A stretch of DNA of 10,695 nt from a virus. Lineage: Duplodnaviria; Heunggongvirae; Uroviricota; Caudoviricetes. Numbering within the stretch: position 1 is the first letter of the stretch; each line of letters starts with the position of its first letter. Of this stretch, positions 3,986-9,436 are shown in pieces. The notes under the pieces were generated by a model, which was not told where the DNA came from, did not search any database, and saw only the letters and a list, made by a program, of their open reading frames with translations. The translations under genes and the position numbers were made by a program. The stretch lies in the IMG/VR virus record IMGVR_UViG_2695420597_000017; one strand, written 5' to 3'.

Positions 3986-4174
3986 TTATCCAGCCGGTAT
4001 TTCGTTATTCAGGTTCAGCGATACTTTTTTTAACGGGAGGCATTCACCGGGGATTTTTTGTTCGTCCCTTACCTGAATGCAGGATGACTTACTGTCATAA
4101 ATTCCGGTAATCACATTTTGTGGCTCACCCGTTATAAGAAAAACGGTCATCACCAGTGCAAATGCTGAAGTCAC
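3986..4174 (-). CDS. ydfD: YdfD-like small protein with N-terminal hydrophobic segment (62 aa, GTG start)
   Basis: ORF directly downstream of dicB with a GTGA start/stop overlap, suggesting translational coupling. GGAG Shine-Dalgarno 7 nt upstream of the GTG. The N-terminus (SAFALVMTVFLITGEP) is hydrophobic and the C-terminus ends EIPAG, which resembles my recollection of Qin prophage YdfD. Not verifiable here. Confidence 0.5.
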   Translation of the reverse strand: MTSAFALVMTVFLITGEPQNVITGIYDSKSSCIQVRDEQKIPGECLPLKKVSLNLNNEIPAG

Positions 4175-4359
4175 TGCTGTTCTCCGATAATACCAAGTTC
4201 AAGAAGGGCAATTCTGGAAAGTATGGAATTATCATTGAGAAGATAAGGTTCATATTTTCTCATCTTAATGGCATCTTCCGTAAACTCCCGGTTACTGAGC
4301 AGAACACCAATATCAAAACAACCTTCAGACGTATTAACGTTTGGTAATAACGTTTCCAT
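4171..4359 (-). CDS. dicB: Cell division inhibitor DicB homologue (62 aa)
   Basis: ATG at 4359..4357 with a GAGGA Shine-Dalgarno 7 nt upstream. Protein METLLPNVNTSEGCFDIGVLLSNREFTEDAI... closely matches my recollection of Qin prophage DicB (MKTLLPNVNTSEGCFEIGV...). It lies immediately downstream of a DicF-like sRNA, as in the Qin dicB operon. The track ORF 4171..4464 is an upstream GTG extension that I consider unlikely. Confidence 0.75.
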   Translation of the reverse strand: METLLPNVNTSEGCFDIGVLLSNREFTEDAIKMRKYEPYLLNDNSILSRIALLELGIIGEQQ

Positions 4360-4528: not shown

Positions 4529-4571
4529 AAAAACGGCGGCAGAGCAGTCACGGAGTAAAACTGATACCGCC
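4529..4571 (-). terminator. Intrinsic terminator hairpin forming the 3' end of DicF
   Basis: On the minus strand, GGCGG (complement of 4571..4567) pairs with CCGCC (complement of 4539..4535), with an inner CAGU/ACUG helix, followed by a U5 tract (complement of 4533..4529). Confidence 0.5.
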
Positions 4572-4586
4572 AAACGTCACCAGAAA
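4534..4586 (-). ncRNA. dicF: DicF small regulatory RNA (about 53 nt; antisense regulator of ftsZ and other mRNAs in E. coli)
   Basis: The minus strand reads UUUCUGGUGACGUUUGGCGGUAUCAGUUUUACUCCGUGACUGCUCUGCCGCCG followed by UUUUU, which matches my recollection of K-12 DicF almost base for base. It sits between ydfC-like and dicB-like genes as in the Qin prophage. Exact ends are processing sites and cannot be fixed from sequence. Confidence 0.75.
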
Positions 4587-5644: not shown

Positions 5645-5681
5645 GTAACAAGAGTTACCTTTCGAGTCAATACAATGTTGC
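5645..5681. promoter_or_regulatory. Predicted left operator/promoter region (OL/pL-like): one perfect-armed GTAAC-N4-GTTAC site (5645..5658) and a degenerate site 23 bp away (5668..5681, sharing CAATGTTnC with the OR site at 6408..6421)
   Basis: The same inverted-repeat motif recurs twice between cI and cro. A TTGACT -35-like hexamer on the minus strand (complement of 5669..5664) sits next to the operator. No convincing -10 could be assigned, so the promoter call is tentative. Confidence 0.4.
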
Positions 5682-5702
5682 AAAAGGTACGTTTGAGGGC
5701 AT

Positions 5703-5725
5703 AAAAAACCCGCAATGAATGCGGG
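5703..5725 (-). terminator. Rho-independent terminator downstream of cI
   Basis: On the minus strand, a stem CCCGCA/UGCGGG with a 6-nt loop (plus-strand 5709..5725) is followed by a U6 run (complement of the A6 at 5703..5708). It lies 8 bp past the cI stop codon (5735..5733). Confidence 0.6.
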
Positions 5726-5732
5726 TTCTGAC

Positions 5733-6407
5733 TCAGTCTAAGTATTGATGTATTTGTGAAACTTTACCTTTAATGGTGTAACCACCATTCAGTTCGATGG
5801 GTTTGTAAAGCGGATTCAGTGACAACAGATAGATGTTTGGTCCGTCAATCGCAACTTTTTTTAGTGTTACGTTTGGCGTTCCTTCCAATTGGATTAAGAT
5901 TATTTTTCCCACCAGTTCTCTAATGTTACTTGAGCATGGTGTGATCAGCACGGTAGATCCGTCGGGGATGGTTGGGAGGCCGTTAGAGTTTGTCATCGCA
6001 TCTCCCTCAACATGCAATAAAAAAGAGTTTTCAGCGGTTTTTGTCATGACATCAACCCAATTCTTAATACCAGGAATCTCGGTTACTGGACAACTCATAT
6101 CCCAATAACCAGCCTGTTCCCACGTTAAAACGGGCAACCGGGCGATGTTGTCACTAATGTAAGGGTACTGATTCAGACGCAGATCATCGGCTTTATCGTG
6201 ACCGTCCTTTCCATAAAGAATCCATTCAGGAGATTTGGAAAGCAATTTTGACAGTAGATACAAATTCTCACCGTCAGGTTTTGAAGAGCCATTTTCCCAT
6301 TTTGTTACGGATACACGAGATATGCCGATTGCTTTCGCAACCTGCTGTTGGGTTAATCCAACGTCTTTTCGACGATTCCGAATACGTTCGCTGATAGTGT
6401 TTTTCAT
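5733..6407 (-). CDS. cI: CI-type prophage repressor: N-terminal XRE-family HTH plus C-terminal S24 (LexA-like) peptidase domain, 224 aa from ATG 6407..6405. The catalytic-serine position is Ala
   Basis: HTH region LTQQQVAKAIGISRVSVTKWENG. Ala-Gly candidate cleavage site in EQAGYW. The S24 motif reads LLHVEGDAMT...VTLKKV, where lambda CI has EGNSM and LexA has GMSM; the conserved Lys is present in LKK. The gene is divergent from cro with an operator-bearing intergenic region. The track ORF starts at an upstream TTG (6506) that would overlap the cro Shine-Dalgarno; ATG 6449 or 6407 is more plausible, and I chose 6407 so that the operators fall outside the CDS. Confidence 0.85.
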   Translation of the reverse strand: MKNTISERIRNRRKDVGLTQQQVAKAIGISRVSVTKWENGSSKPDGENLYLLSKLLSKSPEWILYGKDGHDKADDLRLNQYPYISDNIARLPVLTWEQAGYWDMSCPVTEIPGIKNWVDVMTKTAENSFLLHVEGDAMTNSNGLPTIPDGSTVLITPCSSNIRELVGKIILIQLEGTPNVTLKKVAIDGPNIYLLSLNPLYKPIELNGGYTIKGKVSQIHQYLD

Positions 6408-6498
6408 GTAACCAATGTTACTACCAAGTGATGTTGCTATGGTTGACATTGTTATGTAACTATTGTTACCCTTCTGCTCGAAATAACAGGAGAGTTTT
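6408..6498. promoter_or_regulatory. Divergent cI/cro promoter-operator region (OR/pR/pRM-like) with GTAAC-N4-GTTAC operator sites at 6408..6421 and 6456..6469, 48 bp centre to centre, and a possible weak middle site near 6432..6446
   Basis: Two near-identical imperfect palindromes (GTAACCAATGTTAC and GTAACTATTGTTAC). The spacing is twice the ~24-bp operator period typical of lambdoid OR. A TTGACA -35-like hexamer sits at 6443..6448. The cro Shine-Dalgarno AGGAG is at 6489..6493. Confidence 0.5.
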
Positions 6499-6714
6499 AT
6501 GTTCAAAGATGATGTTCTGCGCTATTTCAAAAAAAAGCGACTAGTAGCTGAGGCTCTTGGAATTTCACATGTGGCTGTTGTGCGGTGGAAAGCAGTTATT
6601 CCCAAACTTCGCGCAATGGAACTGGATGAAATTACTAACGGTGAATTGAAATACAACCCAGAACTTTACAAGAAGCAGGATAGCACCTCAAACGAAGGAA
6701 AGAATGATTCATGA
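6499..6714 (+). CDS. cro: Cro-like repressor (71 aa), P22 Cro-like HTH
   Basis: ATG at 6499 preceded by AGGAG at 5-nt spacing. Protein MFKDDVLRYFKKKRLVAEALGISHVAVVRWKAVIP... resembles my recollection of P22 Cro (MYKKDVIDHFGTQRAVAKALGISDAAVSQWKEVIP...). Divergent from cI. Confidence 0.85.
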   Translation: MFKDDVLRYFKKKRLVAEALGISHVAVVRWKAVIPKLRAMELDEITNGELKYNPELYKKQDSTSNEGKNDS

Positions 6715-7136
6715 AAATCAAGCATGAACACATCCGCATGGCGATGAATGTCTGGGCGCATCCGGACGGCGAAAAAGTGCCGGCTGCGAAAATTACCAAA
6801 GCGTATTTCGAGCTGGGAATGACGTTCCCGGAACTGTATGACGACAGCCATCCGGAAGCCCTGGCCCGTAATACCCAGAAAATTTTCCGTTGGCTGGATA
6901 AAGACACCCCTGATGCTGTTGAAAAAATGCAGGCTCTGTTACCGGCGATCGAAAAGGCGATGCCGCCTTTGCTGGTGGCCCGTATGCGCAGCCACAGTTC
7001 TGAATATTACCGTGAGATCGTCGAACGGAGGGATCGGCTGGTGAAGGATGTCGATGATTTTGTTGCGTCAGCGGTTGTTTTGTATGACCAGATGAATCGC
7101 GGCGGCCCGGCAGGGAATGCTGTGGTGATGCACTAA
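6711..7136 (+). CDS. ydaT: YdaT-like protein (141 aa), occupying the cII position; YdaT-family proteins are reported as CII functional analogues in Rac/CP-933P-type prophages
   Basis: ATG overlaps the cro stop (ATGA at 6711..6714). The N-terminus MKIKHEHI... and the ~140-aa size match my recollection of the YdaT family. The position directly after cro in the pR operon fits. Not verified by search. Confidence 0.65.
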   Translation: MKIKHEHIRMAMNVWAHPDGEKVPAAKITKAYFELGMTFPELYDDSHPEALARNTQKIFRWLDKDTPDAVEKMQALLPAIEKAMPPLLVARMRSHSSEYYREIVERRDRLVKDVDDFVASAVVLYDQMNRGGPAGNAVVMH

Positions 7137-8127: not shown

Positions 8128-8802
8128 ATGAAAAACATTGCGGCAGTTGGGGTTCTTGAACGTATTCGCAGACTTGCACCACAGGGGTCGGTTCCACCGT
8201 ACCGGACGGTGGAGGAGTGGCGGGAATGGCAACTTGCTGAAGGACGAAAACGCAGCGAGGAGATTAACCGCCAGAATCGCCAGTTGCGGGTGGAAAAAAT
8301 CCTGAATCGTTCGGGCATCCAGCCTCTGCACAGCAAATGCTCGTTTGCGAATTATCAGGTGCAGAACGACGGGCAAAAATACGCGCTGAGCCAGGCCAAA
8401 TCCATAGCTGACGAACTGATGACCGGGTGCACGAATTTTGTGTTCAGCGGTAAAACCGGCACCGGGAAAAATCACCTTGCAGCGGCGATGGGCAACCGGC
8501 TGATGGTGAAGGGGCGCAGCGTGATTATCGTCACCGTGTCTGACGTCATGAGCGTGTTGCATGACAGCTACGACAACGGCAAATCCGGGGAAAAATTTTT
8601 ACAGGAGCTTTGCGGGGTTGATTTGCTGGTCCTGGATGAAATAGGCGTTCAGCGGGAGACGAAAAACGAGCAGGTGGTATTGCACCAGATAATTGATCGC
8701 CGGACAGCATCACTGTGCAGTGTCGGGATGTTAACAAACCTGAATCATGACGGTTCCACCGTACCGGACGGTGGAGGAGTGGCGGGAATGGCAACTTGCT
8801 GA
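8128..8802 (+). CDS. DnaC-type (IstB-like AAA+) replicative helicase loader, 5' fragment (224 aa): reads through duplication copy 1, then runs out of frame into copy 2 and ends after 17 aberrant residues
   Basis: Walker A GKTGTGKNHL and Walker B LLVLDEIG. ATG 8128 with GGGGGTG Shine-Dalgarno, 6 nt after the O-like stop. The C-terminal 17 aa (DGSTVPDGGGVAGMATC) are a frameshifted read of the duplicated N-terminal DNA. Confidence 0.7.
   Translation: MKNIAAVGVLERIRRLAPQGSVPPYRTVEEWREWQLAEGRKRSEEINRQNRQLRVEKILNRSGIQPLHSKCSFANYQVQNDGQKYALSQAKSIADELMTGCTNFVFSGKTGTGKNHLAAAMGNRLMVKGRSVIIVTVSDVMSVLHDSYDNGKSGEKFLQELCGVDLLVLDEIGVQRETKNEQVVLHQIIDRRTASLCSVGMLTNLNHDGSTVPDGGGVAGMATC
8189..8750 (+). repeat. 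Tandem direct duplication, copy 1 (562 bp)
   Basis: Sequence 8189..8749 is repeated at 8751..9311 (offset 562). I saw about 6 substitutions in the stretches compared (e.g. GGC/GGT, GTG/GCG, GTG/GAG, GAC/GAT, GGG/GGT, GTT/ATT). Confidence 0.85.
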
Positions 8803-9436
8803 AGGACGAAAACGCAGCGAGGAGATTAACCGCCAGAATCGCCAGTTGCGGGTGGAAAAAATCCTGAATCGTTCGGGCATCCAGCCTCTGCACAGCAAAT
8901 GCTCGTTTGCGAATTATCAGGTGCAGAACGACGGGCAAAAATACGCGCTGAGCCAGGCCAAATCCATAGCTGACGAACTGATGACCGGGTGCACGAATTT
9001 TGTGTTCAGCGGTAAAACCGGCACCGGGAAAAATCACCTTGCAGCGGCGATGGGTAACCGGCTGATGGCGAAGGGGCGCAGCGTGATTATCGTCACCGAG
9101 TCTGATGTCATGAGCGTGTTGCATGACAGCTACGACAACGGCAAATCCGGTGAAAAATTTTTACAGGAGCTTTGCGGGGTTGATTTGCTGGTCCTGGATG
9201 AAATAGGCATTCAGCGGGAGACGAAAAACGAGCAGGTGGTATTGCACCAGATAATTGATCGCCGGACAGCATCACTGTGCAGTGTCGGGATGTTAACAAA
9301 CCTGAATCATGCCGCAATGAGCACGCTTCTTGGTGAGAGGATTATGGACCGCATGACCATGAACGGTTGTCGGTGGGTGACGTTTAACTGGGATAGCTGG
9401 CGTTCAAATGTCAGCTTTCCGGGAGTTGTGAAGTAA
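8747..9436 (+). CDS. DnaC-type helicase loader, 3' fragment (229 aa): starts at an ATG at the duplication junction and lacks the first ~20 codons of the gene; carries the authentic C-terminus
   Basis: 95% of its length is near-identical to ORF 8128..8802 (3 amino-acid differences across the repeat). It then continues with NHAAMSTLLGERIMDRMTMNGCRWV..., giving the DnaC/YdaV-size protein once a single copy is assumed. No Shine-Dalgarno precedes ATG 8747. Confidence 0.6.
   Translation: MTVPPYRTVEEWREWQLAEGRKRSEEINRQNRQLRVEKILNRSGIQPLHSKCSFANYQVQNDGQKYALSQAKSIADELMTGCTNFVFSGKTGTGKNHLAAAMGNRLMAKGRSVIIVTESDVMSVLHDSYDNGKSGEKFLQELCGVDLLVLDEIGIQRETKNEQVVLHQIIDRRTASLCSVGMLTNLNHAAMSTLLGERIMDRMTMNGCRWVTFNWDSWRSNVSFPGVVK
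8751..9312 (+). repeat. Tandem direct duplication, copy 2 (562 bp)
   Basis: See copy 1. The unit length is not a multiple of 3, so the duplication shifts the reading frame by +1. Confidence 0.85.

Follow-up and report, generated by a model that had tools for sequence, protein, structure and literature searches.

The window analysed here, a stretch of 10,695 nucleotides from a virus of the Caudoviricetes (IMG/VR record IMGVR_UViG_2695420597_000017), is the early region of a lambdoid prophage and contains the gene of a CI-type immunity repressor (5733..6407, minus strand). The open reading frame encodes 224 residues from an ATG at 6407 and combines the Pfam domains HTH_3 and Peptidase_S24. The HTH_3 (Cro/C1) DNA-binding domain (6219..6383, minus strand; residues 9-63) was recognised with E=3.5e-17, and the N-terminal domain of P22 C2 matches the same region in phmmer (E=1e-12). 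The Peptidase_S24-like C-terminal domain (5760..6134, minus strand; residues 92-216) covers positions 1-115 of the 116 positions of PF00717 (E=9.5e-17). Within this domain, at the position of the S24 nucleophile that is equivalent to lambda CI Ser149 and LexA Ser119, a GCG codon specifies Ala (5997..5999, minus strand); the minus strand reads GTT GAG GGA GAT GCG ATG ACA, with GCG at 5999..5997. The residue is Ala137 of the 224-residue protein and Ala151 of the 238-residue protein of the RefSeq-style annotation, which starts at 6449 and names the product, a WP_000103686-like entry, a 'LexA family protein'. An identical repressor protein is annotated in Escherichia coli O111 strain 11128.

The assignment of Ala to the catalytic-serine position had been made by eye in the original prediction and was confirmed by profile and pairwise alignments. 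Pfam Peptidase_S24 is matched end to end. The best match among solved structures is full-length lambda CI (3bdn, E=4.4e-14, phmmer), where 'vEGdAMt' of the repressor stands opposite lambda 'vEGnSMt' and the Ala falls on Ser149. Sister alleles carry Ser in exactly the same column, and hence the alignment is not shifted. The two further residue groups that had been predicted to be retained are indeed present. In the alignment with 3bdn, Ala-Gly (GCT GGT, 6108..6113, minus strand; 'eqAGyw') stands opposite the scissile bond Ala111-Gly112 of lambda ('vqAGmf'), and a Lys (AAA, 5859..5861, minus strand; 'tlKKv') stands opposite the general base Lys192 ('tfKKl') in an invariant column, K197. Ala-Gly occurs in every Ser and Ala allele examined except for one of the 15 members of a Salmonella cluster. 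The statement that the codon is one transition away from TCG was in error, as the step from GCG to TCG is a G-to-T transversion.

An AlphaFold2 model of the repressor was built from 43 homologues (mean pLDDT, the model's per-residue confidence score, 78), and a Foldseek search of the PDB ranked full-length lambda CI first. The model matches the C-terminal domains of lambda CI and LexA with template modelling (TM) scores of 0.6-0.8 at a probability of 1.00, and the C-terminal domain of lambda CI with TM scores of 0.76-0.81. Among the matches are 1jhh and 1jhc, crystal entries of LexA S119A. Of the features that characterise S24 proteins, the beta-fold domain, the Lys general base and the Ala-Gly bond between the domains are found and the Ser nucleophile is missing. 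Since Ala aligns with lambda Ser149, the protein is, on its alignment, a non-peptidase homologue within Peptidase S24 and not a catalytic member. Sequence features of a lambdoid CI-type repressor are in place: an N-terminal HTH (helix-turn-helix) domain, a divergent cro gene with the flanking operon layout, and repeated palindromes at the right and left operators (O_R and O_L).

The Ala is neither rare nor confined to the window. A search for the clade in a collection of 5.8 billion proteins yielded five clusters at 90% identity: in E. coli the window-type and P0002 clusters are all Ala and the P0003 cluster is all Ser, and outside E. coli a Salmonella cluster (P0005) is all Ala (GCA) and an Enterobacter cluster (P0006) all Ser. 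In the window-type cluster 15 members were read, all with Ala; a Ser allele of E. coli O55:H7 is expected to belong to the same 90% cluster. More distant members of the family, at no more than 52% identity, carry Ser as well, apart from a degenerate Arsenophonus protein. Among 5426 complete E. coli genomes, 702 (approximately 13%) carry the repressor gene, and about 686 of the carriers have Ala (GCG) and 16 Ser, the latter in two allele types, TCG and TCA. A 57-mer with the nucleophile codon in its middle served to probe the complete E. coli genomes. It matched exactly in 681 of the 683 genomes containing the region; the one of the two inexact matches that was checked likewise has GCG, and the TCG version of the 57-mer had no exact match in these genomes. 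The other 19 carriers comprise eight O55:H7-type alleles with TCG (Ser), three C8-type alleles with GCG (Ala) and eight P0003/ST130-type alleles with TCA (Ser). The resulting Ala:Ser ratio of about 40:1 holds only for the complete-genome set; draft assemblies contain the Ser cluster more often, with members on hundreds of contigs. GCG, Ala-Gly and Lys-Lys were found in all 80 of the 80 best IMG/VR loci, and a search of the GTDB species representatives revealed no close relatives of the repressor.

Comparison of alleles speaks for a gene under selection. Between the window and P0002 alleles, both of which have Ala, synonymous divergence (dS) is 0.53 overall and 0.69 in the C-terminal domain, and the ratio of nonsynonymous to synonymous divergence (dN/dS) is 0.11 overall and 0.053 in the C-terminal domain. 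No stop codon or frameshift is present in any allele examined. This pattern indicates that the repressor gene is functional and not decaying. Repression in vivo of the rightward and leftward early promoters, P_R and P_L, is predicted, with purifying selection as indirect support.

The putative operators point in the same direction. Three exact GTAAC-N4-GTTAC palindromes occur in the window, one between the cI terminator and the leftward operon and two between cI and cro. The operator GTAACCAATGTTAC (6408..6421) is an exact palindrome that belongs to O_R and abuts the cI ATG, a position kept in all members of the clade; GTAACTATTGTTAC (6456..6469), on the cro side of O_R, lies between a TTGACA -35 element and the cro start; and GTAACAAGAGTTAC (5645..5658), in O_L, lies between the TTGACT and TACCTT elements of a promoter-like site directed towards the ydfA-dicF-dicB-exo-xis-int operon. 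Inspection by eye places each of the lytic-side operators in the spacer of a TTGAC(A/T)-17/18-TACCYT promoter-like site; a consensus scanner did not call these sites. Well under one exact operator match is expected by chance, as estimated from pattern length and window size, and a shuffle control with a mean of 2.9 concerns solely operator matches with up to two mismatches. The operator positions are the same in eight related loci, with Ser or Ala, from E. coli, Salmonella and Enterobacter, and the alleles therefore probably form one immunity group. Just past the cI stop a hairpin resembling an intrinsic terminator (5702..5727, minus strand; AACCCGC/GCGGGTT and a T run) was noted by eye and was not reported by a terminator scanner. 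The true start of cI is probably ATG 6407 (MKNTISERIR...), which abuts the operator and would make the cI mRNA leaderless, as in lambda and PaaR2. A start at ATG 6449 would run the N-terminus across the operator, the conserved 'SNIGY' of the longer protein being the translation of GTAACATTGGTTAC; the part upstream of 'SNIGY' varies among relatives, with insertions and deletions, and the Enterobacter allele has GTG in place of ATG.

Ser and Ala alternate among close relatives. The O55:H7 allele is 95.8% identical to the window allele at the nucleotide level, and the two proteins differ at 13 of 238 residues, of which only A151S (TCG) and G222V lie in the C-terminal domain. A neighbour-joining tree was calculated from nucleotides, with the catalytic codon excluded and codons bootstrapped, and support was scored by splits. 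A window group comprising the window-type (Ala), C8-type (Ala) and O55:H7-type (Ser) alleles was recovered in 100% of the replicates, and the O55:H7 allele was nested with one or the other of the two Ala sublineages in 78%. P0002 (Ala) was sister to the window group in 65%, and the P0003-type (Ser) and Salmonella (Ala) alleles branched outside. The branching of the three deeper E. coli lineages is almost star-like, the supporting sites numbering 40, 39 and 31. Each of these topologies calls for at least three changes between Ser and Ala, or else for short-patch recombination. In the most parsimonious set one of the changes is probably a GCG-to-TCG reversion, from Ala to Ser, in the O55:H7 lineage. 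The window and O55:H7 alleles have five differences clustered in nucleotides 438-486 around the codon, with identical flanks, and thus a short patch acquired by recombination from an allele outside the sample could explain the change as well as a point mutation. That the O55:H7 Ser arose by simple gene conversion, with one of the sampled Ser alleles as donor, was considered and rejected, as three of the five states are unique to the O55:H7 allele; for the same reason the donor of the patch, if there was one, is unsampled.

It is tempting, if speculative, to regard the nucleophile codon as an evolutionary on/off switch for SOS inducibility within the immunity group. Six lineages with shared operators would take part: the window-type, C8-type, P0002 and Salmonella lineages with Ala and the O55:H7-type and P0003 lineages with Ser. 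Beyond these, the Enterobacter allele has Ser, as have almost all outgroups. Ala-Gly, Lys and the fold stay intact while Ser and Ala alternate. Were such a switch to exist, selection at the level of the host would favour a locked prophage, with SOS-proof, trans-dominant immunity and a silenced dicB, and selection at the level of the phage would favour regained inducibility.

In the wider family, a HMMER search of 1.84 billion cluster representatives was evaluated for the best 150 matches, 106 of which have the full-length HTH-S24 architecture. In these 106 the nucleophile column contains Ser in 89, Thr in six, Ala in five and other residues in six. Thus 17 of the 106 representatives (16%) are without Ser, and most of them are also without Ala-Gly, which has been lost as well in the Ala-bearing clusters. 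Because about one in six family-level clusters is devoid of Ser, loss of the nucleophile is, as far as these representatives go, recurrent in the superfamily. Several of the top family matches are of great length and contain numerous HTH repeats in tandem, with up to 30 matched stretches. An incomplete search of the literature returned nothing on a natural Ser-to-Ala CI, on Ser-less S24 repressors or on the protein accessions. The non-cleavable lambdoid repressors that have been described, namely DicA, PaaR2 and those of Gifsy and Sakai Sp4/6/9/10, are described as devoid of the domain (PMC10448788, PMC8630535, PMC2669165), and all S24-bearing CI clades of Shiga toxin (Stx) phages retain Ser (PMC8951638). 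HK022 CI was considered as a natural Ser-less precedent and dismissed, as it has GDSM.

From this evidence it seems likely that the gene product is a working CI of the lambda type, that it is a naturally occurring non-cleavable, non-inducible (Ind-) variant and that it uses its S24 domain for oligomerisation only. Lambda CI S149A is non-cleavable, and LexA S119A does not cleave itself and is stable enough to be crystallised uncleaved. By analogy with these mutants the predicted loss of self-cleavage is sound, because the hydroxyl group of Ser is absent. The HTH domain would bind the three GTAAC-N4-GTTAC operators and keep both early operons off, and the C-terminal domain, with its S24 fold, would presumably serve dimerisation and cooperative binding. 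With Ala in place of Ser, RecA-stimulated self-cleavage would not take place and activated RecA could not directly inactivate the repressor. The switch, including the left operon with dicF and dicB, would be uncoupled from RecA and the SOS response, so that P_R and P_L would stay repressed during DNA damage. Signals of DNA damage probably do not reach the prophage switch. Immunity against phages with the same operator type would be SOS-proof and trans-dominant over Ser-type repressors that use the same operators, and induction, if any, would have to proceed by spontaneous CI/Cro flipping or by a trans-acting factor. There is precedent for SOS-insensitive repressors of lambdoid prophages and for non-inducibility by mitomycin C (PMC2669165, PMC10448788, PMC8630535). 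Related dicBF prophages switch by RecA-independent routes; for DicA/DicC, spontaneous CI/Cro flipping of about 1% is independent of RecA (PMC10448788).

Several considerations weigh against a natural Ind- repressor. The loss of cleavage is argued from mutants of other family members; the retained Ala-Gly and Lys may leave room for cleavage in trans or for reversion; and an antirepressor encoded elsewhere, or a spontaneous switch between CI and Cro, may bring about induction. Because such routes could act, an SOS-blind repressor does not prove a non-inducible prophage. In a phage-isolate collection of 50,697 deposited phage genomes no record exceeded 60% identity to the group, with Ser or Ala, and identity to P22 C2 and phage 21 cI is 36%; since the Ser alleles are missing too, their absence says nothing specific about inertness of Ala alleles. 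Some of these points are taken up in a scenario to which a small but real probability is given, namely that the repressor is not cleaved in cis and yet the prophage responds to DNA damage, through an SOS-controlled antirepressor elsewhere or because a Ser-bearing S24 repressor resident in the same cell cleaves it in trans. No Ala allele has lost Ala-Gly or Lys, and E. coli also has Ser alleles that share these operators. Antirepressor control of non-cleavable lambdoid repressors, also in trans from other prophages, is described for Gifsy and for DicA/Rem (PMC10448788), and non-cleavable LexA and CI are known to serve as substrates of intermolecular cleavage (Kim & Little 1993, cited in PMC8951638). 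However, three residues kept in a domain that is 92% conserved are expected by chance. Cleavage in trans is moreover slow in vitro, which counts against an indirect response. In the two prophages that were fully inspected no Rem-like or annotated antirepressor was found in cis, and the gene in the rem position, next to hokD, has no similarity to Rem and no LexA box. A LexA-box scan of the window and four prophage loci, which detected its positive control, the sulA box, revealed no good box upstream of a small gene. In the window, one-mismatch matches occurred at chance level (three found, 3.1 expected). One candidate, the LexA-box core CTGCTCGAAATAACAG (6474-6489) with one mismatch, between the cro-side operator and the cro start, was set aside as a chance-level match, its second half-site not being conserved in the P0002 and P0003 loci.

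Neutral decay, in which the prophage is dead, its S24 domain is degenerating and the Ser-to-Ala exchange is an early lesion, is disfavoured and appears very improbable. The disrupted loader gene of the window, the O111 copy in a remnant without structural genes and the loss of Ala-Gly in the Ala clusters of the wider family would fit such a history, but they are opposed by a dN/dS of 0.05-0.11 between Ala alleles, by open reading frames free of stops and frameshifts in the examined alleles, by operators conserved exactly and by the occurrence of the allele in a prophage with a complete gene set. As the majority state (about 686 of 702), under purifying selection and present in a prophage with a complete gene set, Ala is not a sign of decay. 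The original prediction of a domesticated prophage consequently stands only in part: the loader is disrupted, but Ala is widespread, selected and also found in prophages with complete gene sets. As to the suggestion that the prophage is retained for dicB and DicF, a non-cleavable repressor would keep them silent and not available to the host. Self-cleavage with another nucleophile, such as the neighbouring Thr or an activated water, is still harder to credit. Thr directly follows Met in the motif (GDAMT) and occupies the nucleophile position in six of the 106 representatives of the wider family; lambda CI, however, depends on Ser149 although its motif (GNSMT) contains this Thr too, and LexA S119A was crystallised uncleaved (1jhh, 1jhc). 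A sequencing error or a shifted alignment was refuted by the phmmer alignment, the 57-mer matches, the Ser sister alleles and the IMG/VR loci, no evidence in its support was found, and practically no weight is left to it.

A natural Ind- repressor would have counterparts among both laboratory mutants and prophages. It shares with lambda CI S149A and LexA S119A the residue, the exchange to Ala and the G-x-S-M motif, and here too the repressor is otherwise intact, with Ala-Gly and Lys. The phenotype expected is that of S149A, S119A and cI ind-, non-cleavable and trans-dominant Ind-. The classical lambda cI ind1 mutation affects a different residue. Unlike the laboratory mutations, the Ala is natural, is the majority form of a widespread allele, is under purifying selection and alternates with Ser. 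In architecture (HTH_3 and S24), immunity layout and operator logic the repressor resembles the CI proteins of lambda, P22, phage 21 and the Stx phages, and it differs from a canonical S24 CI by one atom-level change. The Qin prophage of E. coli K-12 has the same leftward operon (ydfA...dicF-dicB-ydfD-ydfE-int) and a divergent cro-like gene, and the N-terminal domains of the repressor and of Qin DicA are 57% identical (blastp). DicA is not cleavable by RecA, and dicBp is not induced by mitomycin C (PMC10448788). However, DicA has 135 residues, lacks the S24 domain and Ala-Gly and is antagonised by Rem, whereas the window repressor has a full S24 domain. The same contrast applies to Gifsy GfoR/GfhR, CP-933P PaaR2 and the Sakai Sp4/6/9/10 repressors, which are likewise lambdoid; they are not cleaved in the SOS response, as is predicted here, and their prophages are not directly inducible by mitomycin C (PMC2669165, PMC8630535, PMC10448788). 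Those repressors have no peptidase domain, whereas the window repressor keeps the domain, the cleavage site and Lys, and it is thus not a short repressor of the DicA/Gifsy type without peptidase domain and Ala-Gly.

SOS-insensitive repressors are therefore not new as such, but those described have no peptidase domain, and here a single residue would make a natural "S149A". About 13% of complete E. coli genomes carry the repressor, mostly as the Ala allele, and the carriers include effector-carrying lambdoid prophages of enteropathogenic and enterohaemorrhagic E. coli. With annotation based on domains ("LexA family protein", "S24 peptidase", "SOS-inducible"), prophages of this kind would wrongly be scored as inducible. 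The known mechanism is left unchanged; what is added is a well-defined and testable variant whose predicted phenotype is the textbook one for Ser to Ala. Ser and Ala alleles with the same operators offer a natural system for studying the interests of host and phage in inducibility, and they allow a test of whether a resident non-cleavable repressor blocks the induction of related prophages during antibiotic-triggered SOS.

In the left arm of the window the order is int, xis, an 823-residue exonuclease gene, a DUF1482 (ydfD-like) gene, dicB, the DicF RNA, a ydfC-like gene and a DUF1391 (ydfA-like) gene, the layout of the dicBF operon of Qin. To its right follow O_L, cI, O_R, cro and a ydaT-family gene, and at the far right an O-like gene (HTH_36), a DnaC/IstB-like loader gene and DUF1627 and DUF977 genes, the last two assigned from the annotation of related loci. 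DicF, dicB, the ydfD-like gene and a disrupted DnaC-type loader, all named in the original prediction, were thus found. The DicF small RNA (4534..4585, minus strand; Rfam RF00039, 72.5 bits) is part of the leftward operon, which is presumed to be controlled by the repressor, and dicB, which encodes a cell-division inhibitor (4171..4359, minus strand; Pfam DicB, E=3.7e-38), belongs to the same operon. The Cro-like gene (P22_Cro; 6499..6714, plus strand) is divergent from cI, and the YdaT-family gene (6711..7136, plus strand) stands in the cII position; YdaT has been described as a CII analogue (PMC8630535).

The helicase-loader gene contains a 562-bp direct tandem duplication, 8189-8750 being repeated at 8751-9312 with six mismatches. 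Its length is not a multiple of three, the frame is shifted and the gene is split into the overlapping open reading frames 8128-8802 and 8747-9436. Among the best-matching complete genomes (the best 8 rows of 1,223 matching records) both junction halves align, but about 560 bp apart and not contiguously, and no copy of the junction was found elsewhere among the complete-genome matches listed. Because the junction was not contiguous in the complete genomes listed, the lesion is unrelated to Ala, with which it had been linked; either the duplication is peculiar to the source, as it looks, or it arose in assembly.

The immunity module occurs in more than one prophage. In strain FDAARGOS_1059 the Ala allele resides in a prophage of about 52 kb between potB and potC that has complete terminase, portal, capsid, tail and tail-fibre genes together with type III secretion effectors; in O111:H- 11128 it resides in a remnant at yccA without structural genes. 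The Ala allele is thus found at two or more attachment sites, and of the Ser alleles, that of strain ST130 is located at yccA and that of O55:H7 CB9615 at rspB, which is the Qin site. As Ala and Ser alleles sit at differing attachment sites, the immunity module, to judge from these loci, recombines among lambdoid backbones. The CB9615 prophage by rspB has a full-length Ser repressor (L019:12003-12719) where Qin has the short DicA, and a dicB/DUF1482/exonuclease left arm as in the Qin type. The comparison suggests that Qin-type and window-type prophages exchange immunity modules.

Two further observations concern the related prophages. The Qin rem position, between hokD and a DUF968 gene, is occupied by a conserved protein of 86-92 residues (MAHDTKL...HAFKSDWYQHPPCTEEQAEWLI...; L001:13974-14234, L013:34826-35098, L006:5173-5451). 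The only good LexA box in the prophages is TACTGTAAAAATATCCAGTT, which agrees with the consensus at 16 of 20 positions. Three related prophages (L013:37660-37679, L016:10773-10792, L006:368-387) have it at a conserved place in a DNA methyltransferase gene, immediately within the 5' end of the coding sequence as annotated.

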